Counted from the stretch's first letter, positions 9,870 to 33,829 are shown. The stretch is DNA of 64,000 bases from a bacterium (GCA_963662285.2 CAXXMV010000002.1:576001-640000), one strand, 5' to 3'. Notes: generated by a model not told the origin, from the sequence alone. Numbers and translations: made by a program.

Positions 9870-11685
9870 TTAGAAGAGTTCCCACCCGGCAACATCGGTG
9901 AAGATATCCAATGTTTGAATGGTAAAGTAATCATATTCTGCAATATTGAAATTCTCAGCGCCCCAGTTTTTGGCGAAGATTCCAATGCGGGTTGCCTGAC
10001 GATTCTCCACAATTGGAGCGCCAACCAACTGCCACGATGAACCTGGCAACTGAGCGCTGAAGATCAACTCTCCATCGCGTCTGGTTACAGCAATCTTGGC
10101 CGTGATTACACCCTGTAACAAGAGTTCATCGATCCAATCAAACTCATTAGTAAATTCATGATAATCAAGGACGCCCAACGCGCCCTTATTGGTTAACTCA
10201 ACGCGTAAATCTGACGCATAGAATCCGAGGAGATACTCATCTCCAGTTACATTGGCATCATCACCTTGATTGTACGATACGACCAAACCAACGTGATATT
10301 CAATCCAGGAAAGAGCATCCATCAAAGTCAATTCAGTCTCTATACGCCAATCACCCTCAGGAATATCCGTACGCAGGATCATGGGGGCGCGGCGTCCATT
10401 GCTCCATTCATTGAACTTTTCAGGAGTGGAAACCGTATCAATCTCAACAGACAATTTTCCATCAGCTGTCGAAATCATAACGCCGTCTTCATAATCTGCG
10501 CTTAAGGCCGGATCGCTGCCATATTCAACAAACCAGGGATCAGCCAGATCGCTATCGAAATCGTCTTTCTTCTCATCTGTCGGGGCGCCAAACAACCAGA
10601 CTTCATTGGTCACGCTGCCATCGCCATGCACTGTATCCGCCAAAGGCAATCCAGTATCGCATAAACCGTTGAACATTAGGTATTTCAGTCCTTCAGGCGT
10701 ACCTAAGGTATACTGAACTGTTTGGGAATTGGTTGTTGGATCAACTTTGAATAACAGGTGGTTGCCAACTAACTCTCCGCCGCCCAGATCAGTAACTTCA
10801 ACGCCAGCAGGAATAACTTCATCAATAAAGGCGGTATAAGAACCATAAAGGGCTTCTGCGGATAACGAAACGGTTAAATCATCACCAGCGTTAAAGAATC
10901 CATCCGCTGTTAATGAACGCTCGACGCGGCCAATTCCTTTTACCCGAACCACTTCCATGCGACCAATATCTTCAACTACATTCGCCCCTGGCATGGCCAG
11001 AACTATCGAATGCACGCCGCCGCTCACTTCAAATGGTCCAACAGTATAGAAATAATACGCATTAAAGTCCGTACCAGCCGCTTCGAAGACGCCCTTGAAT
11101 TTATTGTCGACATATAGATCGACTTCACAATCGCCATTACCCCAAGTATTGATGCTCAAATTCAGGAGAAGAACCTGATCGCCTTCACCCAAATCAAAAG
11201 TATATCGTAACCAGTCACCTGGAGTGACTTTATCACCGCCGATTCCAGCGCCAGTGTCACTGGCCCCTTTCTCGAAGGTCATTTCATCCATATCGCGGTA
11301 ATCACCTAAACTATAGTTCTCATCATCTTTTGGAACTCCAGGATTCGCAAAGTGGAAATCCGCACCAGCTGGAAAGACGAATTCTGCATCAAAAGCAGGA
11401 GCTTCACCGCCTCCGGGACGTTCATAAACTGTGTCTGAAGGGATTCCATCCATGCCTTGGGTATATCGCTCTCCTAAAGCAAACTCTGTCGGATAATTCT
11501 TGCCATCCACCGGGCTGCCGCTGAAGTCATAATCGATGCATTCACGATATAGATATGGCAACAAAATAGCTATCGCTGTATCGCCGGCAATACGCTCTTC
11601 GCCGCCGCCGGAGTCAACGCTGCCTGAAAAACCTGCAACGCGCTTAAGAATCAAGCGGGGTGGTATCGCGTCATAGGTCAACGTT
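9870..11685 (-). pseudogene. 3' part of IS-interrupted paralog of the 6393-9692 protein
   Basis: Collinear with the C-terminal ~600 aa of the neighbour; joins in frame to 14015-15470 after IS removal (..SETVT-LTYDAIPPR..). Confidence 0.9.
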
Positions 11686-20744: not shown

Positions 20745-21599
20745 ATGAAATTAGTCCGGGCATTCTCACCTTATTATGCGCTTCATTTTAACAATGGATC
20801 TCGCATGCTCAGTAATCTCGGTAGAAATATATCTACCTGGATGAAGAGTCAACAAAACAATTTGTCTAATCTAATAGATAGTTATGTAGTGCAAATCAGT
20901 TCATTTTTTAATACTAATGTCAAGCCTTTCTTTGATGCTCATCCCGTAATCGGAATAATGGTTATAGTAACTATAGGTTTCGCTCTTACTATTTTTCTGC
21001 TTGCATTGTCAATAATAATCATAAAGAAAGGAATCAAACTTTTAGCGCTGGGCAGCGCGGTTGCCATGCCTCGTGCGCGAAGTCAACATACAGCGGAAGA
21101 AGTCTGGTCATTCGATCCTCATAAGAGACCATCTCCGGATCAGTTAAAAATTACTCAAAAGAACCTGGAGAAGCTTGTGCAACGCGCGCCAGTTTTGGGG
21201 GGGCATGTGCCTAAAAATTCAGATCCATCTCTTAAAGAATTGGCCAGGCGCAACAAAGATTCTGATTATAATTACCGTAATGCGATTTATGTTATGGGGC
21301 CAATAAAAGGAACCAGTTTTGATAACCAATATGAAATCCCAATTGCTATTGATCAGATCAAACGAGTAAGCAATATGATGAAGCAGGCATCGGATTATGA
21401 AACGCTGCCCCTTGATCTGGTTATATTGCGGGCTAAAAAAGGCTCCAACAATTGGGAAATCGAACCGAGTATTGCTCCTGTCAGCTTGGGGAAATCTTTC
21501 CCCGTGAAATGTATTGAGAAAATCATGATACAATACCGAAATACATTTATTTGGGATCAACGAGCAACAAAATCCAAAACCGGTCATGGAACGCGGTAG
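20745..21599 (+). CDS. Hypothetical membrane-anchored protein (frame open upstream to 20559)
   Basis: 284-aa ORF with one long TM segment; no recognised family. Confidence 0.65.
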   Translation: MKLVRAFSPYYALHFNNGSRMLSNLGRNISTWMKSQQNNLSNLIDSYVVQISSFFNTNVKPFFDAHPVIGIMVIVTIGFALTIFLLALSIIIIKKGIKLLALGSAVAMPRARSQHTAEEVWSFDPHKRPSPDQLKITQKNLEKLVQRAPVLGGHVPKNSDPSLKELARRNKDSDYNYRNAIYVMGPIKGTSFDNQYEIPIAIDQIKRVSNMMKQASDYETLPLDLVILRAKKGSNNWEIEPSIAPVSLGKSFPVKCIEKIMIQYRNTFIWDQRATKSKTGHGTR

Positions 21600-21606
21600 G
21601 GTATAT

Positions 21607-21638
21607 AAAAATTCCCCTCAAGACAAGAGGGGAATTTT
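21607..21638. terminator. Bidirectional intrinsic terminator closing the phage-like operon
   Basis: aaaattcccctc-aagacaa-gaggggaatttt between convergent genes. Confidence 0.75.
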
Positions 21639-21684: not shown

Positions 21685-21993
21685 CTAGATAATTTCTATA
21701 GGAATAATATCCAGATTGCCTGCTTTCATGGAAGCATCCGCCAATTGTATTTTGCCATGAAGAATTCCAGCAATATTGGTATCACTGGATTGAACAGTGT
21801 ACTCAGCTATTCCCATTGGAGCATCTCTTTTAACGCAGCCGGTGTGATCAGTATTTTGCAGATCGTTGTCATTATATAAAAGAAAATCCACTGAAAATCC
21901 CGATAAATCTATAGGCGTTCCCTCCTCGTCCCGACATAAGAAAGTTAGCTTCAGGCCATAATCATTTTGGTTTATTCTAATAGAAGAATTCAT
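21685..21993 (-). CDS. BppU-like phage baseplate upper protein domain
   Basis: QND....L.F....GTPIDLSG...G...Y.VQ..DT..AG pattern typical of the BppU N-terminal domain. Confidence 0.65.
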   Translation of the reverse strand: MNSSIRINQNDYGLKLTFLCRDEEGTPIDLSGFSVDFLLYNDNDLQNTDHTGCVKRDAPMGIAEYTVQSSDTNIAGILHGKIQLADASMKAGNLDIIPIEII

Positions 21994-22202
21994 GAATGCA
22001 CCTCGTTTAATGGTTTCCGGGCGAAATGAACTTGAACCGAATGATGGAGAGGTATTGTGATATCGATATATATCCGATGTTGATTATCAGAATCAATACC
22101 TTTTGCGCTCTGCCACTCTTGCCCCAGAAAACGCCCTGATCTGCGTAAGATGGGATCGTCGGAATTAATTGCTGATGAATTATTATTAGTGATATCAGAC
22201 AT
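21990..22202 (-). CDS. Small hypothetical protein of the phage-like operon
   Basis: GGGAGGAG RBS before ATG 22202; ATGA overlap with the next gene. Confidence 0.5.
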   Translation of the reverse strand: MSDITNNNSSAINSDDPILRRSGRFLGQEWQSAKGIDSDNQHRIYIDITIPLHHSVQVHFARKPLNEVHS

Positions 22203-22233
22203 GTTGCATCTCCTCCCTTCAGCTGGTGTTAAG

Positions 22234-23025
22234 TTACCAGGATTGATTAGGCGATAGATAGAAAGTTCCATCGATGGGTGGAGTTGTAGAACGAATTTCT
22301 TTTGATGATTTAACCGCAGAGGAAGCATTTGAATAATATAAAACGCGGAAAAATGTTTCTATGGGAGTCGCGAACAGGATATCATCCGGCGCGGCGAGTT
22401 GAATTTCAATATGAGAGGGTAAATCAGCGGGAACTTTCCTCATGCTGCTATCAATCGCGCTTTGAGCATACCACAATCTGGCGCGGGAATATTCGCGGGA
22501 ACCAATGCGAACCTCATTATTCATATCATCAATAGTTGCAATGATGGCCTGGCTGGCTGATAAGACAGACGCAGTAACGCAAGCAACCATTTCGTTTTTG
22601 TATGGAAGATACGCCGCCTCGGTAAGAGGCGTCAGACCTCCGAGACCGCTTACTTCATTGGCGATTCCCGTAATCCCATGACCTGCGCTGTATAGCGAGT
22701 AGGTCTTATAGGCTTGCGCCGTCACTCCACCGATCAAACCGGAAATCAATATATCATACTGTCCGGGGCTATCTCCACTGGTGGAATAGGAACCTGTAGC
22801 AACGCCAAGTTGCGCAATCGACATTGATCCTGAAGAGAGCGCTGCGCCAAACTGCATGACCGAGTAAGATAAATTTACCGGATTGGTTGGAGAGCCAGTA
22901 ACCGGATCAGAAGCAATAACCAGAAAAGGGATGTTCTCTCCAACTTCAAACATCCCTAAATAATTTTGAGAGAATGCAGGTAAAGAAAAAATCAGTACGT
23001 ATAATGATAATAAAAAGCGTTTCAT
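22234..23025 (-). CDS. Signal-peptide-bearing hypothetical protein (Ig-like N-terminal region)
   Basis: MKRFLLSLYVLIFSLPAFS-Q; AGGAGG RBS. Confidence 0.7.
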   Translation of the reverse strand: MKRFLLSLYVLIFSLPAFSQNYLGMFEVGENIPFLVIASDPVTGSPTNPVNLSYSVMQFGAALSSGSMSIAQLGVATGSYSTSGDSPGQYDILISGLIGGVTAQAYKTYSLYSAGHGITGIANEVSGLGGLTPLTEAAYLPYKNEMVACVTASVLSASQAIIATIDDMNNEVRIGSREYSRARLWYAQSAIDSSMRKVPADLPSHIEIQLAAPDDILFATPIETFFRVLYYSNASSAVKSSKEIRSTTPPIDGTFYLSPNQSW

Positions 23026-23046
23026 GATAAAAACCTCCTGTTTTCT

Positions 23047-23313
23047 TTATACTTTGTCAGAGAAAAAAACGCGCAATACCACGGCGATAAGACTTCCGAC
23101 TAAGGCGCTGACGCATGCCGCCGTCGCTTTAACGCCAGCAAGATCCACCCGGCTGTTATCCACTTTGTTATAGAGATCGATATTCGATTGATGGATATCT
23201 CGAACTGAACATTCGATAGATTCCAATCTTGTGCGAATATGCTCTAATGAAGTTTGTATCTCGACGTACTCTGTGGTGTACCTGGCATCTGATCCGTTCA
23301 TGGCGTTCTCCAT
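23047..23313 (-). CDS. Small coiled-coil protein with C-terminal TM (holin/XhlA-like)
   Basis: Heptad-rich N-terminus followed by a single TM helix; architecture and position typical of phage lysis-cassette proteins. Confidence 0.5.
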   Translation of the reverse strand: MENAMNGSDARYTTEYVEIQTSLEHIRTRLESIECSVRDIHQSNIDLYNKVDNSRVDLAGVKATAACVSALVGSLIAVVLRVFFSDKV

Positions 23314-23344
23314 TTTTTCACTTTGTTATATAAATCACTCCAGA

Positions 23345-24196
23345 TTAATTACACTTTTGCCATCCCGACGAACAGCGGATATAAGCGCCATCCTGGTTAT
23401 CATCGCTGGTATGGTCGAAGTAGATTAAATCGCCCACTTCACCACCGGGTAGAGAGTTATAAACCGGGAGTTTCAATGGACCCGAAAGAGTCAAACGACC
23501 AGTATCGCCATTGAGCAGCATGGAATTTGACTGCGTATCGCTATGCCATGCGAAATTAGCATCAGAATAGAAATCCATAGTACTGGCGGAGATTGCCAAG
23601 CGGTATAATGTTCCGAACAGGCGCAGCTTATCACCGGTGGAATCTTGCGCGAATTTAAATAGCCCTGTAGAGATAACATCCCGCCCGGCTTGAATATCCC
23701 GTTTAATTTGCACATCCCCGTCATCACCCAGAATAACCATTAAATCGGGAACGGTATCACTGTGGAATTTGATGTTCTGATCCGAAGTGATATCCAAATC
23801 GAATGGAGATACGCCTATGCTGTAGGAATGGCTATAGAAGCGTATTTTATCTCCCAGAAAATCGGCGAATTCCATCATGGTTGCAGGTATGATTTTGCCC
23901 GATGACGTCCCTCCACTGGTGGGATCGAGCTGCATATCTGTATTTGACCGGATTACGAATTTTGATCCATCGCCAAAGATATGAAACAAACCCGCATTAT
24001 GGTTCAAAACAAAAGTCGCCGCCTCAATGGTTGATGTTGCGGCGCTGACATCGCCATACAAGGCGCCGCCGGATTTTAACAAAAAGGCGTCTTCGATCTG
24101 CTCTTTCCCTATTAGGGTTTGCGAGCATGAATTTATAGGATTTGAGTAGACAAGAACGATGAATCCAAAAATATAAAACAACTTTGATTTCTTCAT
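23345..24196 (-). CDS. Tail-fibre-like beta-rich protein with apparent signal peptide
   Basis: MKKSKLFYIFGFIVLVYS.. N-terminus; internal repeat GDKIRFYSHSYSIGVS..SDQNIKFHSD / GDKLRLFGTLYRLAIS..SDANFAWHSD. Confidence 0.55.
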   Translation of the reverse strand: MKKSKLFYIFGFIVLVYSNPINSCSQTLIGKEQIEDAFLLKSGGALYGDVSAATSTIEAATFVLNHNAGLFHIFGDGSKFVIRSNTDMQLDPTSGGTSSGKIIPATMMEFADFLGDKIRFYSHSYSIGVSPFDLDITSDQNIKFHSDTVPDLMVILGDDGDVQIKRDIQAGRDVISTGLFKFAQDSTGDKLRLFGTLYRLAISASTMDFYSDANFAWHSDTQSNSMLLNGDTGRLTLSGPLKLPVYNSLPGGEVGDLIYFDHTSDDNQDGAYIRCSSGWQKCN

Positions 24197-24231
24197 GTTG
24201 CACCTCATTGGATTGAAAAAAGATACTGTTT

Positions 24232-25029
24232 CTATTCGATTTCGTAATCGACTATATAGCGGTGTTGAATTCTGTAATGAGCCGAAGGAGATTGATTGAA
24301 GGTATAACTATTACGCGATTCATCCTCCTTGTAATCAATTCCTTGTTGTTGCAAGACGCCGTTAAGATAGATATTCAGGCTTCCGGTGCGGTAAATATGC
24401 CTGGTGAAGAACTGGGTTCGCTCTCCATCCGGCGCTTGATCCGGTGCGGCATCCGTTCCGTGCAGATGGGCTTCGCCAAGCATAAATCTGGGGCGGACAT
24501 CGATGATGTATGACTGGACGTTATCATCCACCGCTACGATAGATTCTGCGCCTACCCGCTGGTATATCTGCGCCAAAACCAATGAATCAGATGGCGTCTC
24601 TGGAGCAATGGGCGTCTCCGCCTCATCTCCCTGAACCACATCCAATTCGCCCGCATCGGTCAGGACAATCAAATCAATACGCGGATATGAAACAGGCGCG
24701 ATGAATACTCCGCCTGCAGGGAGGACTTGCTCCTCCAGCGATCCGGCGAATGATTTTTGTATCACCGCCAATCCAGGACTGACTTTGATCGTCATGTCTG
24801 GAGAATCGGCGGGAGTAATCTTGAGCGAATCATCTCCCATGTTTGTGATAACGGCGGAACTGTTCCTGGCAAAGAGAGACGCGCACGCCTGGTGCAGTAA
24901 TTCGAATGCAGCGGTGATGTTGCCATTCCAACGATTCACTTTCGAAGAAGTTAATGGCGCCTCCTGGAAGACGAAAAGCGCCGAAGTGTTTTCAGTATTT
25001 TCCGGGTTATAACGTCCATACTGAGCCAT
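24232..25029 (-). CDS. Phage tail/baseplate-associated protein
   Basis: MTIKVSPG.A..PRIDLIVL..G..P.AP..P...LAQI..I.DVR pattern plus a C-terminal SLNIYLNGVLQ..G.DY module common in tail proteins. Start at MAQYGRY. Confidence 0.6.
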   Translation of the reverse strand: MAQYGRYNPENTENTSALFVFQEAPLTSSKVNRWNGNITAAFELLHQACASLFARNSSAVITNMGDDSLKITPADSPDMTIKVSPGLAVIQKSFAGSLEEQVLPAGGVFIAPVSYPRIDLIVLTDAGELDVVQGDEAETPIAPETPSDSLVLAQIYQRVGAESIVAVDDNVQSYIIDVRPRFMLGEAHLHGTDAAPDQAPDGERTQFFTRHIYRTGSLNIYLNGVLQQQGIDYKEDESRNSYTFNQSPSAHYRIQHRYIVDYEIE

Positions 25030-25030
25030 T

Positions 25031-26026
25031 TTAAGCCTCCCGGTTATGCAGTGTTTGAACTGACAAAGAGCCTTGATCCTGACGGGTGACAGCGGCGATT
25101 GATACGGCTTCAGCATTTTTATTGCTGCAATCACTGAGGATTTCTCCAAGGCAGGCGCCATCTTCTTGTAAGAGAGTATTAGCAGTTTGAAGCATGTCCT
25201 CATTGGTTGCACTACGAATCCACAACAGGTCAGCGCTTTTGGATAACGCGTCGGAAATATCATCCAGAGTATTTCTTTCTTGCAACAAGCCGCGTTTTTC
25301 CAGAAAGTCTAAAAGTGGATCGTCGCCATCACCAACTATCAACACAGGATTGTCATTTACAAAACCATCTTCAGAACGCTCGCCGGATAGATAGGTGTTA
25401 CGGTCAGCGCTCTTGTATACCAGAGAGCCTTCAAGCACTTCGGTGATATGATCGATCAAACGATAACAGCGCTGTTCGTTATACAACGCTCCCGCCCGGT
25501 GGCCGCATCTACCATTGGGAGAACGGCAAATCGAGCAACTCCATGCATCAAATTTCCAGGCCAGAGAGACTTCGCGATAAATGCCGCCGTCAATATTAAG
25601 CAGCAGGTCTTTGGCGCCGCTGGTATTGCGCAGCCAATAAAACCAAGCCCGTACAAAAAAGACCGGCTCGTTGCTATTCTGCAAATCGCTTTGCACAACT
25701 TCCGCCTTAAAAAAACGTGCGATTGGAAGTGAAGAACGATCATGACCAGTTAACACTGACAATCCGACTACTCGCTGTGCGATTTCATCCAAAGCATTAC
25801 GGGTAAACTGACAACCGTCTGATAAACATGGTTGTGAAGAGCAGAGATACATGCTTCTGATAAAAACCTGTTCCGAAGACAGATTACCCGGGGCGAGTTG
25901 ATTGATAATTTCCATGTCCGATTCGCTAGTCGGAACATCTTCGAACATCGGTTTACCACGGGTTAACATAGTCGGCATTTTGTTTTTAATCTTTGAAAAG
26001 GAGCGTCCACTTAATTGATTGGACAT
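25031..26026 (-). CDS. Putative prohead protease with CxxC..C.H..C motif and an unrelated C-terminal domain
   Basis: GHD, IDGGIYREVS, CSIC..CGH..G..Y...C and EGSLV match the pattern of prohead-protease-type genes found before this capsid family. Confidence 0.65.
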   Translation of the reverse strand: MSNQLSGRSFSKIKNKMPTMLTRGKPMFEDVPTSESDMEIINQLAPGNLSSEQVFIRSMYLCSSQPCLSDGCQFTRNALDEIAQRVVGLSVLTGHDRSSLPIARFFKAEVVQSDLQNSNEPVFFVRAWFYWLRNTSGAKDLLLNIDGGIYREVSLAWKFDAWSCSICRSPNGRCGHRAGALYNEQRCYRLIDHITEVLEGSLVYKSADRNTYLSGERSEDGFVNDNPVLIVGDGDDPLLDFLEKRGLLQERNTLDDISDALSKSADLLWIRSATNEDMLQTANTLLQEDGACLGEILSDCSNKNAEAVSIAAVTRQDQGSLSVQTLHNREA

Positions 26027-26072
26027 AGCGCGCCTCCTGTTTTTTATTTGTTTTCAGATAGATTCAACTTAA

Positions 26073-26726
26073 TTAAATCCAGAAATCCCGGTATTGGATG
26101 GTGCAGAAAAAATCCGCGTTCGATGGCTGCGCTTGCACCGTCACCTGATTGACGCCAACATCAAGTGAAGGAAAATCATCCATTGACCGGGCGAGACTCT
26201 TTTCGTCCTTAAACAATGATCTACTTTCAGAATCGACAATCAGAGATTGTCCTTCATCAAGGGTTTCATCCAATTCGCAGATTCGATTTCCGATGGATAT
26301 TTCCAGATGATGGATGGCTTGAATTGCCTTGATGGATATGTGCAGCGGCGCTATCCAGTTCCCGGCATTGAAAAGCGAAAGAGCTGCGCGTCCGAAGAAA
26401 CCTGATAATGAATGAGTATGAAGCGACAGGCTTCGTTCATAGCGATCACTGGTAAGTGCGGTGAATTCCACCCATGTCCGTGAGCCATGAAGGTTGGGTG
26501 CGGTGTGAAAAGAACGGCGCCGCCCAAGATAAAAACGCCCTGGATGAAGGCTTAGATGAGTCGCGCCCTGATCAAAAGATTCAACAGCATTTTCAAGTAT
26601 ATCCATCGACTTATCTATCATTGATTGAATCCGTATTTCCTTACGGACTTTACTTTTTGCTTCAATGGTATTGACCTGCATAATTGTCGAACGTTTAGGA
26701 AACTCGAAATCGCCAACCGATATCAT
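26073..26726 (-). CDS. Distal tail (Dit)/phage tail family-like protein
   Basis: N.G....P...I, L..G..L.VDS, and FPSL.VG.N.V....I.YR..W C-terminus typical of siphophage Dit proteins. TAATG coupling to the upstream gene. Confidence 0.65.
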   Translation of the reverse strand: MISVGDFEFPKRSTIMQVNTIEAKSKVRKEIRIQSMIDKSMDILENAVESFDQGATHLSLHPGRFYLGRRRSFHTAPNLHGSRTWVEFTALTSDRYERSLSLHTHSLSGFFGRAALSLFNAGNWIAPLHISIKAIQAIHHLEISIGNRICELDETLDEGQSLIVDSESRSLFKDEKSLARSMDDFPSLDVGVNQVTVQAQPSNADFFCTIQYRDFWI

Positions 26727-27118
26727 TATTGATCTCCCTTCGTAACAACCACCGGCGTAGAAACGCTGACGCGAAGATAAGGACGCAACATGCACCAGGA
26801 TTCTTCCCACAAGACTTCTGATAATTTCATCAGATTATTCAAACGGCTTGATTCATTGACTTGCAAACCCGAAGTACGCCAGTCATTGGTCGAAACAGCA
26901 CAAGAAACCACTATTGAACGAAAGATATGAGAAACGGCTAAAAGCGATTCGGCGCTTATAATCTCATTCGTTATCCCGCTTTCATCAGTCAGCATCGTCC
27001 CGGCCAAGATGTCCTCATGCGCTTTTGAAAGATTGTCGAGTAAAAGTTCTGGTGTGATTTCATCGAAATTGCGCAGGTTTGCCGCCTTACGCACGTCACT
27101 TTCAGTTGCAAAACTCAT
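26726..27118 (-). CDS. Putative head-tail adaptor / head-completion protein
   Basis: MSFAT..DVR N-terminus, AE..LA and L.PY C-terminus; located directly after the capsid gene. Confidence 0.6.
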   Translation of the reverse strand: MSFATESDVRKAANLRNFDEITPELLLDNLSKAHEDILAGTMLTDESGITNEIISAESLLAVSHIFRSIVVSCAVSTNDWRTSGLQVNESSRLNNLMKLSEVLWEESWCMLRPYLRVSVSTPVVVTKGDQ

Positions 27119-27148
27119 AGTCCTACTCCATGTTTCTCTTGGAGAATT

Positions 27149-27186
27149 GCGGGGAGCAAGTCGCCCAACAACGACTCGCTCCCCTG
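27149..27186 (-). terminator. Stem-loop downstream of the capsid gene (attenuator or mRNA stabiliser)
   Basis: ggggagc-aagtcg..cgact-cgctcccc hairpin, without a strong U-tract. Confidence 0.5.
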
Positions 27187-27204
27187 TAATGACATCACAC
27201 GCGA

Positions 27205-28269
27205 TTAGGCCGATCCAATGTCTAGTATTTTGCACGAGTCAGTGATGACTTTTGCGAATCCAGCAGTTTCAGAAATAGCTGTTCCTTCGATCTGGCGCCG
27301 GATCAAACGCTCGCTTTCAGTCAACACTCCTGTTTCATAGACTTCTTGTAGCGCAAAGCGTCGATCAAGACCGATGATTTTATTATTCGATACGGATTCA
27401 TCAACAATTAATTCAGCGCCAAAGAGACGGACGTTTTCACCTTTGGTCTGGAAGCCGCCAGTGACGGCGGGTTCGCTGATCTCATCAACGCCCAGCAGCG
27501 TTCCTGCTGTGGTTTTATTGCAGATCATGATATTCATCTGGTAGGGAGCGAAAGAAAGAACGAACGAAACCAGGTCGCTATAGGTTAAAGTTCCAGCAGT
27601 CGCTGCATCAATTTCAACGGCGGGATTGCTATTGCCATCACCATTAATAAGTACATCAATGGCGTCAACAAACTTATCGCGTTGAATCTGAACGCCGATA
27701 CTGCGCAGGAAAACCGAAATAACATTGGCGCGTTTGCGGCGGATTGCTTCATAGGTCGCCTGGAGATAGCGCCCGTATTTCTTGATTTCAACTGAATGTT
27801 CAGCCGTCTTGAGTTCTATTGCAGGTAGCGAAGCGCCTTCGCCGACAATAGCCAGAGATTTATCTCCTGTATCAAATACCGATTCATCCATGTAGATGCT
27901 TTTGTATGAGTTGTCATCGATTTTGACGCGTGCGGCGAGGATGTTTCTCAGTTTATTGAAATCATCAAAACCGGTTTGCACCGAGCGGGAAACATATTCA
28001 GGAAACAGCACTGCACTCTCCTGGGAGGCGAAGAACCGGTCAATTATATCTGCGTCATTGCCGCTCACCCGAATACCAGCCAGAGCCAGCTGCCGTTCGA
28101 ATGCATCAAGTTCCGCATCCTGCGGTGATGGATCCAGGCTCTCCAGATATCCGGTTAGATCGAAGCCGCGTTGCGCGGATTCGGCGTACATGCCTTCATG
28201 CAGAGGAATTGTTGCAGCGCGATGCAAAGTTTCTGGTATGGAATTCAATTTATCTTCTGGAAAAAACAT
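27205..28269 (-). CDS. Phage major capsid protein (HK97 fold)
   Basis: LESLDPS..LDAFERQL..FF..SAVLFPEYVSR, VGEGA.LP, IKKYGR.L.ATYEAIR and VLINGDG; 354 aa. Confidence 0.88.
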   Translation of the reverse strand: MFFPEDKLNSIPETLHRAATIPLHEGMYAESAQRGFDLTGYLESLDPSPQDAELDAFERQLALAGIRVSGNDADIIDRFFASQESAVLFPEYVSRSVQTGFDDFNKLRNILAARVKIDDNSYKSIYMDESVFDTGDKSLAIVGEGASLPAIELKTAEHSVEIKKYGRYLQATYEAIRRKRANVISVFLRSIGVQIQRDKFVDAIDVLINGDGNSNPAVEIDAATAGTLTYSDLVSFVLSFAPYQMNIMICNKTTAGTLLGVDEISEPAVTGGFQTKGENVRLFGAELIVDESVSNNKIIGLDRRFALQEVYETGVLTESERLIRRQIEGTAISETAGFAKVITDSCKILDIGSA

Positions 28270-28345
28270 AATATAAACTCCTTATTTACTCTAAGAATTT
28301 AACTGGTTGTTCTTTTTTTCGTCTTTCAAACCGAGGCGATATCTT

Positions 28346-28753
28346 TTACAGAAGAAGATCGCAGGTACTGCTTCCATCTACCGCAAGAGTGGTTCCACGG
28401 GCGATATTGCCGCCAGCCGGGTCGCCGGATGATTCAGCAATCGCAGGCGCCTGGTACACTTCACCAGCCCCATCAACCACAACGCTGTTGCCGACGCCTG
28501 GGGCCGTCATGCCTGATTTCAACCGGAAACGCGCCACGCCGCGAATTTGCACTGTAGCCAAACCACCTGAAACATGCTCCAAGCGCCCCAACAATTGACC
28601 GCCATTGCTGCCATGATTAATTTGGTTGCTGCCGGAAAGCACGACGGCGTCACCGACATTGGTTTCTTCCAGGTCGTAATCATCACCCGTCTTGTGAATG
28701 TTGAATGTGGCGTATAACGCGCCGATTCCATTGTTATCAACTGTTCTACTCAT
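28346..28753 (-). CDS. Capsid decoration/cement-like protein
   Basis: Gly-rich 135-aa protein directly upstream of the capsid gene; ATVQIRG and VVDGAG.V pattern. Confidence 0.6.
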   Translation of the reverse strand: MSRTVDNNGIGALYATFNIHKTGDDYDLEETNVGDAVVLSGSNQINHGSNGGQLLGRLEHVSGGLATVQIRGVARFRLKSGMTAPGVGNSVVVDGAGEVYQAPAIAESSGDPAGGNIARGTTLAVDGSSTCDLLL

Positions 28754-28812
28754 TGGTTTTCCTCCACTGGATTTTTTTTGGTTGAAACAAGATTTTTCAA
28801 TTACTCAATCTC

Positions 28813-29283
28813 TTAGTCCGCAGCCCCGATGCGGTAATCCGCCAAATCACCGATGCGGGCAGAAGACGCTGAAGCATCTTCTTGAAAACGCGATAATGGT
28901 TTGGTTGGATAGAGGCTTCTAAACTCGTTGGTAATCTGGCGATGCAACATTGCAATCTCACTCAATGGAAAAGAGTTATCCGCAAAAGAACGTTCCATCG
29001 TTTGCAAGCGTTCTCTATCGCCGCTGTAATGGACAATGGCGCGCAAACGAGTCAAAGACTCCTGCTTTTGTTTTTCAACTGCACATCGTCCAAGATCAGC
29101 GTATCGAGAGAGATTCTTTGACTCGTCTTCTAGTCGATTGATAGTTTCAGTTTGAATCTCGTTGCGCTGTTTCTCTGTTTCGACTTCTTTTTCGAGTTGT
29201 TCGCACTGCAAGGCTAATTTTCGTACATCCAGCATTGCCGTGATTTTTTCATTGCGATTATGGTGTTGATTATCAGTAGCCAT
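28813..29283 (-). CDS. Coiled-coil protein, putative capsid scaffold
   Basis: Heptad-rich and charged; first gene of the operon; GAGG RBS. Confidence 0.55.
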   Translation of the reverse strand: MATDNQHHNRNEKITAMLDVRKLALQCEQLEKEVETEKQRNEIQTETINRLEDESKNLSRYADLGRCAVEKQKQESLTRLRAIVHYSGDRERLQTMERSFADNSFPLSEIAMLHRQITNEFRSLYPTKPLSRFQEDASASSARIGDLADYRIGAAD

Positions 29284-31213: not shown

Positions 31214-31272
31214 TTGATAATTAATTAATCACCGTTATAATGCATCCTAAGGATGCATTATAACGGTGATTA
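31214..31272 (+). promoter_or_regulatory. sigma70-like promoter with a perfect 23-bp inverted-repeat operator for abiE
   Basis: TTGATA(31214)-16 bp-TATAAT(31236); arms taatcaccgttataatgcatcct (31226-31248) and aggatgcattataacggtgatta (31250-31272). Confidence 0.82.
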
Positions 31273-32150
31273 TGAAAACCATCGAAAAAGCGCTGTTACA
31301 ATATATAGATAATTACGAACTCGCACTTATTGCGGATTACCAAATAAGCGTTCTTTTTTTCACGCTCCCCGAAAACCAAAGAAGAGAATTAAATATTGAT
31401 TCCCCATTAAAAAAGAATACGATTACTGGAATTATCGAAAGATTTCTTTCCCTCGGATTATTACAATTAAACAAATCTTTCCCCAAAAACAATATTTATA
31501 ACATCATAGGGAAAAAACCTTCTATTGAAGAAATCTCTTGTATTATAAATCCCTTCTCCTATATATCTCATCTAAGCGCAATAGAGCATCATGGTCTTAC
31601 TAACCGAATCTCAAAAACCCTTTTTCTCTCATCTCCACCTGACAAAAAGTGGAATGAATTAGCTAAACAAAAAATGAGTAGTGATCTAGGTGAATTATTT
31701 CCTGATTATTTGAAAAGCGGATTACCAAGATTAAAAAGGATTCATGTAGAGAAAATCAATAAACATACTTTAAATATCCATAAAAGTAGTTATTTAGGAG
31801 CGTTTAAATCACATAATAATATCCGCGTTTCAAAAATTGGACGAACCTTTCTCGATATGATCCGCGAACCAAACCTCTGCGGTGGTATAGAGCATGTTTT
31901 GGATATCTATCAGGAGCATTCAGAAAAATATCTAAGATTGATAGTAGAGGAAATCAATAGAAACGGCAAAAAAATCGATAAAATTCGTGCAGGTTATATA
32001 CTTACGGAACGATGCAAACTCGATCATCCATTGATCCATGAATGGGAACAATGCGCTCAAAGAGGCGGTTCGCAAAAACTCGATGCGTCCACCGAATACA
32101 GTCCGGAATATTCAGAACGCTGGAAACTGTCAATCAACACAATCACATAA
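31272..32150 (+). CDS. Type IV toxin-antitoxin AbiEi-family antitoxin / transcriptional regulator
   Basis: YISHLSAIEHHGLT, RTFLDMIREPNLCGG and RAGYIL motifs; upstream of AbiEii. Confidence 0.82.
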   Translation: MKTIEKALLQYIDNYELALIADYQISVLFFTLPENQRRELNIDSPLKKNTITGIIERFLSLGLLQLNKSFPKNNIYNIIGKKPSIEEISCIINPFSYISHLSAIEHHGLTNRISKTLFLSSPPDKKWNELAKQKMSSDLGELFPDYLKSGLPRLKRIHVEKINKHTLNIHKSSYLGAFKSHNNIRVSKIGRTFLDMIREPNLCGGIEHVLDIYQEHSEKYLRLIVEEINRNGKKIDKIRAGYILTERCKLDHPLIHEWEQCAQRGGSQKLDASTEYSPEYSERWKLSINTIT

Positions 32151-32153
32151 CAA

Positions 32154-33023
32154 ATGAAAAAGGCTCTAATCAATATTGAAAAGTGGGTTCAACAAAAAAC
32201 CGAAAAGCCGCCCAAGCCATTTCGGGAAGCCGTTCATTCAATTCTTTTTGCAATTACAAATTCGGACTATCTATTGCGCAATATGATCATCAAAGGTGGA
32301 ATGCTTCTTGCAATAAGATACCAAAGCACCCGCTTTACCAAGGATATCGATTTTTCAACATCTGAATCCTATACCGAGAAGAAACAGCAGGAATTAATTA
32401 AAGAACTTGAACAAAGCCTTACTGATAACGTTGATATTCTTGGCTATGATCTTGATTGCAGAGTTCAATCCTGCAAAATCCAACCAGCCAATCAACCAGA
32501 ACCAACATTTCCATCATTGAAAATAAAGATTGGCTATGCCTATATAGGAACAAGAGAGCATAAACGATTAGTCATGAAAAATGCTTCATCCGTCATTGAT
32601 ATAGATTTCAATTACAATGAATCCATGCCTCATATTGAAGAAATTCTAATATCTGAAGGCAAAAAAATCTTAGCCTACAGTTTGAATGATCTAATTGCGG
32701 AGAAATATCGGGCTATCCTTCAACAAAAAGAGAGAAAACGTACTCGACGACAGGACATCTATGATTTACATTATCTATTTCAAAACCTAGATGATTTTCC
32801 CCCGGAAGATAAAACTGAAATACTAGAAACTCTCATACTCAAAGCAAAATCACGAAACCTTTTAATCAATCGAGATTCCATGGATAATGCAGATATCCGT
32901 AAAAGATCAAAGCAAGATTACAATACGATCAAATATGAAATAGTCGGTGAACTACCAGATTTTGATGAAGCCTATGATATGATTCAGAATTTTTATCAAT
33001 CATTACCTTGGAAATCAAAATAA
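32154..33023 (+). CDS. AbiEii/AbiGii-family nucleotidyltransferase toxin
   Basis: IKGGMLL..RFTKDIDFS, AEKYRA and R.QDIYDL motifs. Confidence 0.9.
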   Translation: MKKALINIEKWVQQKTEKPPKPFREAVHSILFAITNSDYLLRNMIIKGGMLLAIRYQSTRFTKDIDFSTSESYTEKKQQELIKELEQSLTDNVDILGYDLDCRVQSCKIQPANQPEPTFPSLKIKIGYAYIGTREHKRLVMKNASSVIDIDFNYNESMPHIEEILISEGKKILAYSLNDLIAEKYRAILQQKERKRTRRQDIYDLHYLFQNLDDFPPEDKTEILETLILKAKSRNLLINRDSMDNADIRKRSKQDYNTIKYEIVGELPDFDEAYDMIQNFYQSLPWKSK

Positions 33024-33038: not shown

Positions 33039-33265
33039 TGACTAATACCTGAAGAAGAATACGCATCTCGAATTAATTAATAAGTACTTGACTTGTCCTC
33101 TGTCTTGTCGCCTTTACTCTTTCTTCAAAACTCTATTCACTCATTTCCAGAATCTGCCGTTGCTCTTACAAAACCTTCGCCGTACCATATAGAAAACTCA
33201 TATTGGAAGCGGAAAAGGATGCAAACAAAATGATTTAGAATCATATTTGTGTGAAGGAAAATAAC

Positions 33266-33829
33266 ATGAATAAACTGATTCAAAGAGCATTCACATTAAT
33301 TGAGTTGCTTATAGTTGTCGCTATTATTGGAATATTAGCAGCGATTGCGGTTCCAAATTTTTTGAACGCACAGCTACGGGCTCGCGTTGCCCGAGTCATG
33401 AACGATCAACAAGCCATCGGGACCGCGTTGGGCATGTATCAGATAGACTATAATGCTTTCCCTCCTTTTTTAAATTGGCCGGATTTCGCATATGTGGGCG
33501 TCAAGGAACTGACAACGCCCACTGCTTATATGGCTGATTACCCGGTTGACCCATTTCAAAGCGCCAAAGAAGGATCGGGTGTTCCGGATACCTTTAAGTA
33601 TATAAAAATGTCGTATTACAACCTTGATATAATGAATCAGACCGGGCAAGCTCGAGGTAATACCAGTTTCGGCGTGAAAGAATATCGCCAGGGGCATAAA
33701 TGGTGCGTACGCAGTTTCGGTCCTAATCGGCTGGCGGATTATGATAGCAGTCTCGATGTATTTCCGACATATGATATGAGCAATGGCTTGATGAGCGTAG
33801 GAGATATTTACCGTTGGGGCCCGGGTTAA
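33266..33829 (+). CDS. Prepilin-type N-terminal cleavage/methylation protein (GspG/pilin-like)
   Basis: AFTLIELLIVVAIIGILAAIAVPNF class III signal; LTTP..Y...P.DPF and S.GP motifs. Confidence 0.9.
   Translation: MNKLIQRAFTLIELLIVVAIIGILAAIAVPNFLNAQLRARVARVMNDQQAIGTALGMYQIDYNAFPPFLNWPDFAYVGVKELTTPTAYMADYPVDPFQSAKEGSGVPDTFKYIKMSYYNLDIMNQTGQARGNTSFGVKEYRQGHKWCVRSFGPNRLADYDSSLDVFPTYDMSNGLMSVGDIYRWGPG

Follow-up and report, generated by a model that had tools for sequence, protein, structure and literature searches.

To our knowledge, the gene transfer agents (GTAs) recognized so far are few and mostly alphaproteobacterial, and telling a GTA from a dead prophage is an open practical problem. Capsid-forming satellites of the phage-inducible chromosomal island (PICI) type carry a small capsid/portal/protease/packaging module without a tail tube and are mobile, helper-dependent islands with integrase and replication genes; encapsulins come without a portal, a maturation protease, a terminase or tail parts. 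For RcGTA, Shakya et al. (PMC5721377) propose that association with the host was established first and that division into loci followed. FpGTA of Faecalibacterium, as described in PMC12946183 (Nat Commun 2026), comprises a ~10.5 kb structural operon and a second operon ~125 kb away, is podovirus-like and limited to one Bacillota genus, and is backed by experimental evidence for the packaging of host DNA of 8.4-8.9 kb. Here we analyze an operon of 12 open reading frames (ORFs; o1 to o12) encoding an HK97-type capsid and associated head and tail-tip proteins, at positions 21685-29283 on the minus strand of the window, i.e., the whole 64,000-nucleotide stretch G000:C2:576001-640000 of a 7.29-Mb assembly in 8 contigs. 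This operon very probably belongs to a particle system of tailed-phage origin that the host lineage has domesticated and passes on vertically, and we lean, with distinctly more reserve, toward a full GTA-like reading of it.

The signature of domestication is unusually clean, combining phylum-wide presence, trees congruent with that of rpoB and strong purifying selection on every gene. As judged by homology, the system is conserved across a candidate phylum whose record titles read Candidatus (Ca.) Omnitrophota or Ca. Hinthialibacteria, and in this genome its predicted components occupy at least four loci: the operon, an orphan portal gene, an orphan gene for a hub-like protein and a large terminase gene. 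The sequence-only reading from which this analysis departs had proposed a host-domesticated particle system rather than a decaying prophage; the relatives, substitution rates, trees and orphan loci described below all speak for that proposal.

Head, tail-tip and packaging genes

Relatives of the window genome, all of them metagenome bins, are grouped below into families f1 (the family of the window genome) and f2 to f6, and 14 related loci were compared. Features are listed in the order of transcription, with positions in the window unless a contig is named; for o4, o5, o7 and o11, the coordinates are those of shorter forms suggested by the alignment starts of homologues, and lengths are in amino acids (aa).

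o1: 28813..29283, minus strand; 156 aa, coiled-coil-like, possible scaffold by position only
o2: 28346..28753, minus strand; 135 aa, head-associated structural protein, always directly before the capsid gene
o3: 27205..28269, minus strand; 354 aa, HK97-type major capsid protein
Post-capsid RNA hairpin: 27151..27184, minus strand; 15 uninterrupted G+C-rich bp, no U-tract
o4: 26726..27118, minus strand; 130 aa (refined start), position suits a head-completion or adaptor gene
o5: 26073..26726, minus strand; 217 aa (refined start), distal tail protein (Dit) homologue
o6: 25031..26026, minus strand; 331 aa, prohead protease carrying a Cys/His insertion and, at its C-terminus, a lineage-specific extension
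o7: 24232..25029, minus strand; 265 aa (refined start), receptor-binding or tail-fiber-type protein
o8: 23345..24208, minus strand; 287 aa, hydrophobic signal-like N-terminus
o9: 23047..23313, minus strand; 88 aa, coiled coil and C-terminal hydrophobic helix
o10: 22234..23025, minus strand; 263 aa, N-terminal signal-like peptide
o11: 21990..22202, minus strand; 70 aa (refined start), overlaps o12 by 4 nt
o12: 21685..21993, minus strand; 102 aa
Terminator-like hairpin and T-run closing the operon: 21614..21630, minus strand; from a consensus scan, just 3' of o12
Orphan portal: G000:C2:104533-105900; phrog_30703 1.8e-14, PF04860 weaker
Orphan hub-like tail protein: G000:C2:80801-81931; 376 aa, homologous to a compact-cluster gene (E 1e-30)
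Large terminase: G000:C8:864077-865666 (= L114:9077-10666); phrog_2 1.1e-35, PF03237 4.7e-16

Among the head proteins, the labels of HK97 capsid and prohead protease given in the sequence-only reading hold up well. The single-copy capsid gene o3 matches phrog_3922 (2.3e-80) and PF25209 (3.6e-12), phage major head families and not encapsulin families. The o6 product matches phrog_16951 (8.6e-28), a family that accompanies portal and capsid: a gut phage contig has the order small terminase, large terminase, portal, phrog_16951, capsid; two IMG/VR contigs have a portal gene, an o6-like gene and then a capsid gene; and the gut-phage member of phrog_16951 weakly matches a head-maturation-protease family. 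Residues H95, S154 (in an S-x-[AG]-[FW] context) and C164/C167/C174/H176 (C-x-x-C...C-x-H) of o6 are invariant in 19 aligned sequences, and H95 and S154, judged by motif resemblance, are presumably the catalytic pair. The invariant His and Ser, together with the company that the family keeps, are HK97-type protease features and support the assignment of o6 as the prohead protease; PDB profile searches returned nothing significant for the protease, o2 or o4. The Cys/His cluster is probably a zinc site; it is placed after the putative catalytic Ser and before the C-terminal strand and is kept in the Zixibacteria-type homologues described in the last section. In families f1 and f2, o6 has an extra C-terminal extension of ~110 aa.

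The remaining head genes are less easily named. The o2 product matches phrog_4588, "virion structural protein" (3.5e-6), and no other family; the gene is present in 14/14 related loci (dN/dS, the ratio of nonsynonymous to synonymous substitution rates, 0.11-0.19) and adjoins the capsid gene in Zixibacteria-type loci too. Homologues of o1 (dN/dS 0.29-0.30; a weak Pfam match to DivIC, E 0.052) and of o4 (dN/dS 0.12-0.19; no Pfam, PHROG or PDB match) each occur in 11 of the 14 loci. The proposed labels of scaffold for o1, decoration protein for o2 and head-completion protein for o4, like those of a holin-like o9 and a BppU-like o12, remain guesses because no significant match names such functions: no family or PDB-profile match was significant for o1, o4, o8, o9, o10, o11 or o12.

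The tail tip is represented in the operon by o5 and o7. A Dit label had been proposed for o5 and is borne out by a match to PF22768 SPP1_Dit (1.9e-7, above its cut-off) and by a profile of 15 homologues that matches PDB 2x8k_A (SPP1 gp19.1) at 6.3e-8 over positions 28-212 of 226 (185 positions), so that homology to a solved Dit extends over both domains; o5 is found in 14/14 loci. The AlphaFold2 model of o7 is usable (predicted local distance difference test score, pLDDT, 77.5), and its top fold matches among solved structures are phage baseplate and tail-fiber proteins, the best being a phi812 baseplate protein (4.4e-4); against BFVD it yields 73 matches at E<=1e-3, the named ones being receptor-binding, minor tail and tail fiber proteins. 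The modeled fold thus supports o7 as a fiber or receptor-binding protein. Of the two tail/fiber-like proteins originally suggested, this is the one that stands; o8, whose predicted model is unusable (pLDDT 41) and whose Atlas search returned unnamed clusters only, is unconfirmed.

Portal and large terminase, two of the parts that the sequence-only reading could not recognize in the window, turned up between host genes elsewhere, as it had allowed for, and so did a hub-like gene. A portal model from a related gut phage (phrog_30703) finds a single place in the genome, flanked by genes for an NHL-repeat protein, a GGDEF response regulator, a Zn-ribbon protein and rsfS, 492 kb from the operon. 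The hub-like gene lies 23 kb further on from the portal on the same contig, C2, and its neighbors are a TPR lipoprotein gene and genes of sugar and quinone metabolism. By language-model features, the hub-like protein resembles clusters of phage minor-tail proteins and of Mu gp44/GpP baseplate hubs (score 0.97), and its profile weakly matches the diffocin hub in the PDB (E 0.058); these are two agreeing leads to its identity and not proof. PHROGs matched 0/11 members of the family. A complex prediction for Dit and hub scored 0.00, which amounts to no verdict and carries no weight for or against binding. On contig C8, between asparagine synthase, IS481-type transposase and purF genes, lies the only convincing match in the genome to two terminase models; across 9 sequences, the Walker A, Walker B and nuclease motifs of this large terminase do not vary, and the gene has a dN/dS of 0.20. 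Portal and large terminase are both intact in this genome. The G+C content of the operon (45.8%) resembles that of the genome (44.0 +/- 2.6%), and the portal and hub genes are likewise typical of the genome.

Distribution, descent and selection

By profile, a capsid protein is found in 29 of the 35 phylum genomes and in 17 of the 18 of high quality, so the proposed system is present in close and distant relatives alike. Family by family, capsid matches number 17/19 in f1, 4/4 in f2, 0/2 in f3, 0/1 in f4, 6/7 in f5 and 1/1 in f6; portal matches 18/19 (f1), 4/4 (f2), 7/7 (f5) and 1/1 (f6); and hub matches 17/19, 4/4, 7/7 and 1/1 in the same four families. In f3 (two genomes, of 95% and 77% completeness) and f4 (one genome, 90%), none of capsid, portal, hub and terminase is matched. 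Each genome with a capsid match has it at one place, apart from G001 and G032, where it falls into two neighboring pieces of a single contig, and G025, where the two pieces lie on separate contigs. The order of all 12 genes is conserved in f1 and, for the most part, in f2; f5 and f6 keep the core from o2 to o7.

The divergence of these genes follows that of their hosts. Identity to the window genome declines by rank from 82-66% through 65-64% to 59-55% for the capsid, from 70-56% through 54-52% to 48-42% for the portal and from 86-80% through 77-74% to 66-64% for rpoB. Maximum-likelihood trees of rpoB, capsid and portal cover 15 of the 29 capsid-positive genomes, chosen for the availability of all three sequences at full length; each of the trees resolves as (f6,f5),(f2,f1), with the same two subclades within f1, bearing out the expected congruence of capsid and species trees. 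In a tree of 156 capsids, the 23 from the phylum form one clade with support 100. No complete prophage relative was found; the closest IMG/VR capsid is 45% identical. The operon shares a 1.85-Mb contig with rpoB. Synteny with the flanking genes, proposed as a test, proved patchy: ndh stands beside the operon in only 3/14 loci (three other genera), as rsfS and the Zn-ribbon gene stand beside the portal in 3/9 loci (three other genera). The 284-aa ORF at 20745-21599, downstream of the operon, has no Pfam match, and its homologue is beside the operon in 0/14 related loci.

Selection on the operon is purifying throughout, dN/dS being far below 1 for all 12 ORFs: 0.07-0.30 over 12/12 ORFs in the pair G006/G019 and 0.025-0.29 over the 10/10 ORFs present in G022/G024. 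Only these two same-genus pairs were used because dS is saturated in more distant ones. The values for the capsid (0.05-0.07) and portal (0.05-0.11) stand next to 0.03-0.06 for rpoB.

The families differ in how far the genes lie apart. In f5, a single compact cluster of ~12 kb runs from portal to terminase in the order portal, an ORF of 230-266 aa, o2, capsid, o4, Dit, protease, o7, three small or unknown ORFs, hub, small ORFs and a large terminase (phrog_38, 5e-74). The order in f6 is the same up to the hub, with a phrog_38-type terminase match on another contig. Among the 10 larger ORFs flanking one compact cluster there is no integrase, and the 6 with Pfam matches are all host-type. Portal, hub and terminase stand at separate loci in f1 and f2, and in one f1 genome, G005, capsid and portal still share a contig and are 13 kb apart. 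These arrangements support a history in which a compact cluster was domesticated first and its components were scattered later.

The organization of the operon is largely as the sequence-only reading had described it. All 12 co-oriented ORFs begin with ATG and lack internal stops, and with the refined starts they are tightly packed: o4 and o5 overlap by 1 nt (TAATG), o11 and o12 by 4 nt (ATGA), and o6 and o7 are separated by 1 nt. The claim of clear ribosome-binding sites holds in part, GGAG-like purine runs being visible by eye 5' of 10/12 starts and missing at o8 and o9. The post-capsid stem-loop is real: it begins 20 nt 3' of the capsid stop, and the surrounding 106 nt (27110-27215) fold at -42 kcal/mol (z -3.85), a value equaled by 1/200 shuffles. 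An uninterrupted stem of at least 10 bp occupies the same position in 9/14 related loci, where the sequences all differ (no shuffle control was run on these), and the hairpin is probably an attenuator or stabilizer that sets capsid dosage. The closing terminator was found as a terminator-like hairpin and T-run, read from 21630 to 21614; terminator-like sites in the region number 16, against 9.1 +/- 3.3 in shuffles. The edges are those of an ordinary chromosomal locus, as had been claimed: the window has no tRNA by search, no direct repeats bracket the operon, no integrase or att-like repeat was found at the operon in the window, and by Pfam the flanks encode NDH-2, two GT2 glycosyltransferases and a radical-SAM protein.

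Of the ORFs downstream of o7, o8 is conserved in f1 and f2 (dN/dS 0.10-0.14). Its f2 homologue (L021, L026; dN/dS 0.10) is 751-772 aa long vs. ~285 aa, and this long form may be a lineage-specific extension of a fiber or spike. The most constrained small ORF is o9 (dN/dS 0.03-0.09), a possible membrane or lysis accessory; its XhlA matches are below threshold (4/11 members, best E 0.034), which leaves the holin-like label unverified. The o10 gene occurs in 7/14 loci, all f1 (dN/dS 0.30), with no Pfam, PHROG or PDB match; o11 occurs in 6/14 (dN/dS 0.30); and o12 occurs in 10/14, in f1 and f2 (dN/dS 0.06-0.17), with no Pfam or PDB match, which leaves its BppU-like label unsupported. PDB profile searches returned nothing significant for o7, o8, o10 or o12.

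Elsewhere in the window, an AbiEii-type nucleotidyltransferase toxin gene (PF08843, 1.5e-33) lies at 32154-33023. It is preceded by an unassigned 294-aa ORF (31266-32150), which could be its antitoxin, and followed by a gene for a protein with an N-terminal methylation motif (33251-33829).

Proposed working and rival explanations

We posit that the capsid protein and the portal would assemble a prohead, probably aided by o1 and o2, that the o6 protease would mature the shell and that the terminase would fill the head with DNA. A short tail tip consisting of Dit (o5), the hub and the o7 receptor-binding protein would be attached via o4, and the hairpin after the capsid gene probably boosts capsid output over that of the downstream genes. 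The tail is probably tube-less because three Pfam models matched neither a tube nor a tape measure and no long gene exists in the operon, whose longest ORF has 354 aa, or likewise in the compact clusters. Packaged DNA, if any, would be host DNA, and the particle would act as a GTA: with its genes separated by more than 500 kb and divided between two contigs, it could not carry its own genome or propagate as a virus, and a particle so constrained would move host DNA as GTAs do. Features of GTAs found in the genes are phage-like structural genes without integration, replication or lysogeny modules, and long-term vertical inheritance with purifying selection. Particle formation, DNA packaging, release and transfer are steps that we infer from these genes.

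Several observations weigh against this GTA-like reading, most of them concerning the terminase, whose link to the system is inferred. The gene has 52.3% G+C in a genome of 44.0%, lies beside an IS481-type transposase gene, is present in two copies in G007 and G024, and as a query matched only 13/19 f1 genomes. No terminase was found with either model at E<=1e-5 in G012 (95% complete), G005 (94%) or G017 (85%), all of which keep capsid, portal and hub; G005 has two terminase remnants of ~50 aa (63% identity) in two contigs, and its capsid (80%), portal and hub are intact. Pairwise comparison of the f1/f2 terminase with that of the f5 cluster gives no significant similarity. Other expected parts are missing as well: PF10145, PF04630 and PF06199 detected no tail tube or tape measure in the genome, a search that a divergent tube could escape; no small terminase, endolysin or regulator was identified; and the large terminase has no conserved neighbor within ~1.5 kb in the terminase loci of 9 relatives that could be a small terminase. 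Six of the 12 ORFs are without an assigned function, and the signal-like N-termini of o8 and o10 are unusual for virion proteins. In G016 (f1, 82% complete) the hub gene is broken by several stops and neither capsid nor terminase is matched, with an intact portal (63%), and this lineage may be in the course of losing the system; the G005 operon (L024) lacks o10 and o11. Finally, because all relatives are metagenome bins, the absence of a component may reflect incomplete assembly.

The terminase gaps and atypical features keep alive the strongest rival, in which the particle is domesticated for a selected function other than DNA transfer and the terminase is dispensable or unrelated. A head that stays empty or carries protein, fitted with a tail tip, could serve in killing, adhesion, cell-surface interaction or controlled lysis; taken together, we regard these options as unlikely, though well worth keeping in sight. 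They would account for the 6/19 family genomes in which no terminase was found, for the remnants in G005 where capsid, portal and hub stay intact, for the divergent and compositionally atypical terminase, for the signal-like o8 and o10, and for the missing tube and tape measure. Yet the terminase, where present, keeps invariant ATPase and nuclease motifs and a low dN/dS, the portal and maturation protease, which are needed for DNA-filled heads, are conserved almost everywhere, and the terminase absences come from metagenome bins.

Far less probable is a capsid-forming satellite of the PICI type, or a repeatedly integrating phage family that borrows parts from a helper. The small capsid-centered cluster without a tail tube fits such an element, as do related capsids (at most 45% identical) in viral contigs with the order portal-protease-capsid, but the operon has one copy per genome and no integrase, tRNA or att-like repeat, its host flanks are partly conserved across genera, its partner genes lie dispersed across more than 500 kb, and the phylum's capsids form a single clade. 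No other terminase was found in the genome, and thus no obvious helper prophage. A PICI-type satellite or prophage was rejected on the lack of integrase and att sites, the non-patchy distribution and vertical descent.

A defective prophage remnant in neutral decay is, if anything, slightly less credible still. No integration, replication or lysogeny genes remain, G016 has a pseudogenized hub and no capsid match, and G005 lacks o10 and o11, as decay would predict; against this stand 12/12 intact ORFs with dN/dS of 0.03-0.30, a capsid in most genomes of the phylum that diverges only slightly faster than rpoB, and trees that agree with rpoB, and decay was rejected on these grounds. A tailocin was also considered and rejected. 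An encapsulin-like HK97-fold nanocompartment, which the window on its own might suggest with an HK97-fold capsid and neither a portal nor a terminase, is excluded for practical purposes because portal, prohead protease and terminase are conserved along with Dit, hub and receptor-binding protein, and the capsid belongs with phage head families.

A parallel system and comparison with known systems

A homologous capsid (36-39% identity), o2 and protease occur in genomes titled Zixibacteria or Ignavibacteria. In L053, a complete chromosome titled Zixibacteria, the capsid gene is at 10001-10996, and among its relatives (G041-G083) a capsid is found in 38/41, at 66-86% identity (36 at one place, one split and one as a half-length match). 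The cluster is minimal and stands between two-component genes and rpoB; the distance from the capsid to the portal-terminase pair is 412 kb in G041, 107 kb in G042 and 5 kb in G043. It differs from the system in the window genome in its order (protease-...-o2-capsid), in a protease fused to a ~400-aa extension and in its downstream genes, and its capsids form a separate, long-branched clade. From these genes it looks like a second phylum-wide domestication, and the literature searched, which did not extend to subscription journals, contains no description of it. In the 156-sequence capsid tree, Zixibacteria- and Ignavibacteria-titled records interleave, some pairs being nearly identical; this could be due either to label noise in the record titles or to transfer between the groups; one phylum or two may be involved.

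We offer, tentatively and as something short of an even bet, the broader idea that two candidate phyla each keep a near-universal, single-copy, scattered phage-derived machine, consisting of a head and a tube-less Dit-hub-fiber tip, whose role may exceed or differ from DNA transfer; the latter is suggested by lineages that keep capsid, portal and hub under selection after loss of the terminase. If true, these would be the most deeply conserved GTA-like systems outside Alphaproteobacteria. The literature searched, which left out subscription journals and the supplements of PMC12946183 and PMC5721377, holds no GTA-like or capsid system in these phyla, and the words capsid, phage, prophage, terminase and viral are all absent from one Hinthialibacteria genomics paper. 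The lineage, which has no cultured model, displays a stepwise history from compact cluster to scattered orphan genes. It provides a target with defined genes for the study of how genes flow horizontally among uncultured bacteria of sediment and groundwater, and also of how a tube-less tail tip works and why hosts keep phage heads.

Set against known systems, the one described here shares with encapsulins an HK97-fold shell protein encoded among host genes and departs from them in its conserved portal, protease, terminase, Dit and hub. Unlike PICI satellites, it has no integrase or att site, descends vertically and has its own Dit, hub and receptor-binding protein. RcGTA of Alphaproteobacteria resembles it in more respects: host-kept phage head and tail genes, vertical inheritance and phylogenies that agree with that of the host at the family and order level, and a genome that, as PMC5721377 proposes for RcGTA, was split into several loci once the association existed. 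Also in common are an HK97-type capsid, a portal, a prohead protease, Dit, a hub and, as a putative member here, a large terminase. They differ in phylum, in the protease gene lying downstream of Dit, in portal and terminase being orphan genes and in the lack of any tube or tape measure found; the capsid here, placed in PF25209/phrog_3922, is set apart without direct protein comparison, and the system is known from genes alone. Given its different arrangement and the failure to find a tube or tape measure, we do not consider it to be of the RcGTA type. The closest published architectural analogue is FpGTA, likened to it by architecture as a GTA-like, short-tailed system outside Alphaproteobacteria that is encoded in two operons. 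Unlike FpGTA, the system described here, so far known from sequence alone, appears to be divided among at least four loci and to span a candidate phylum.

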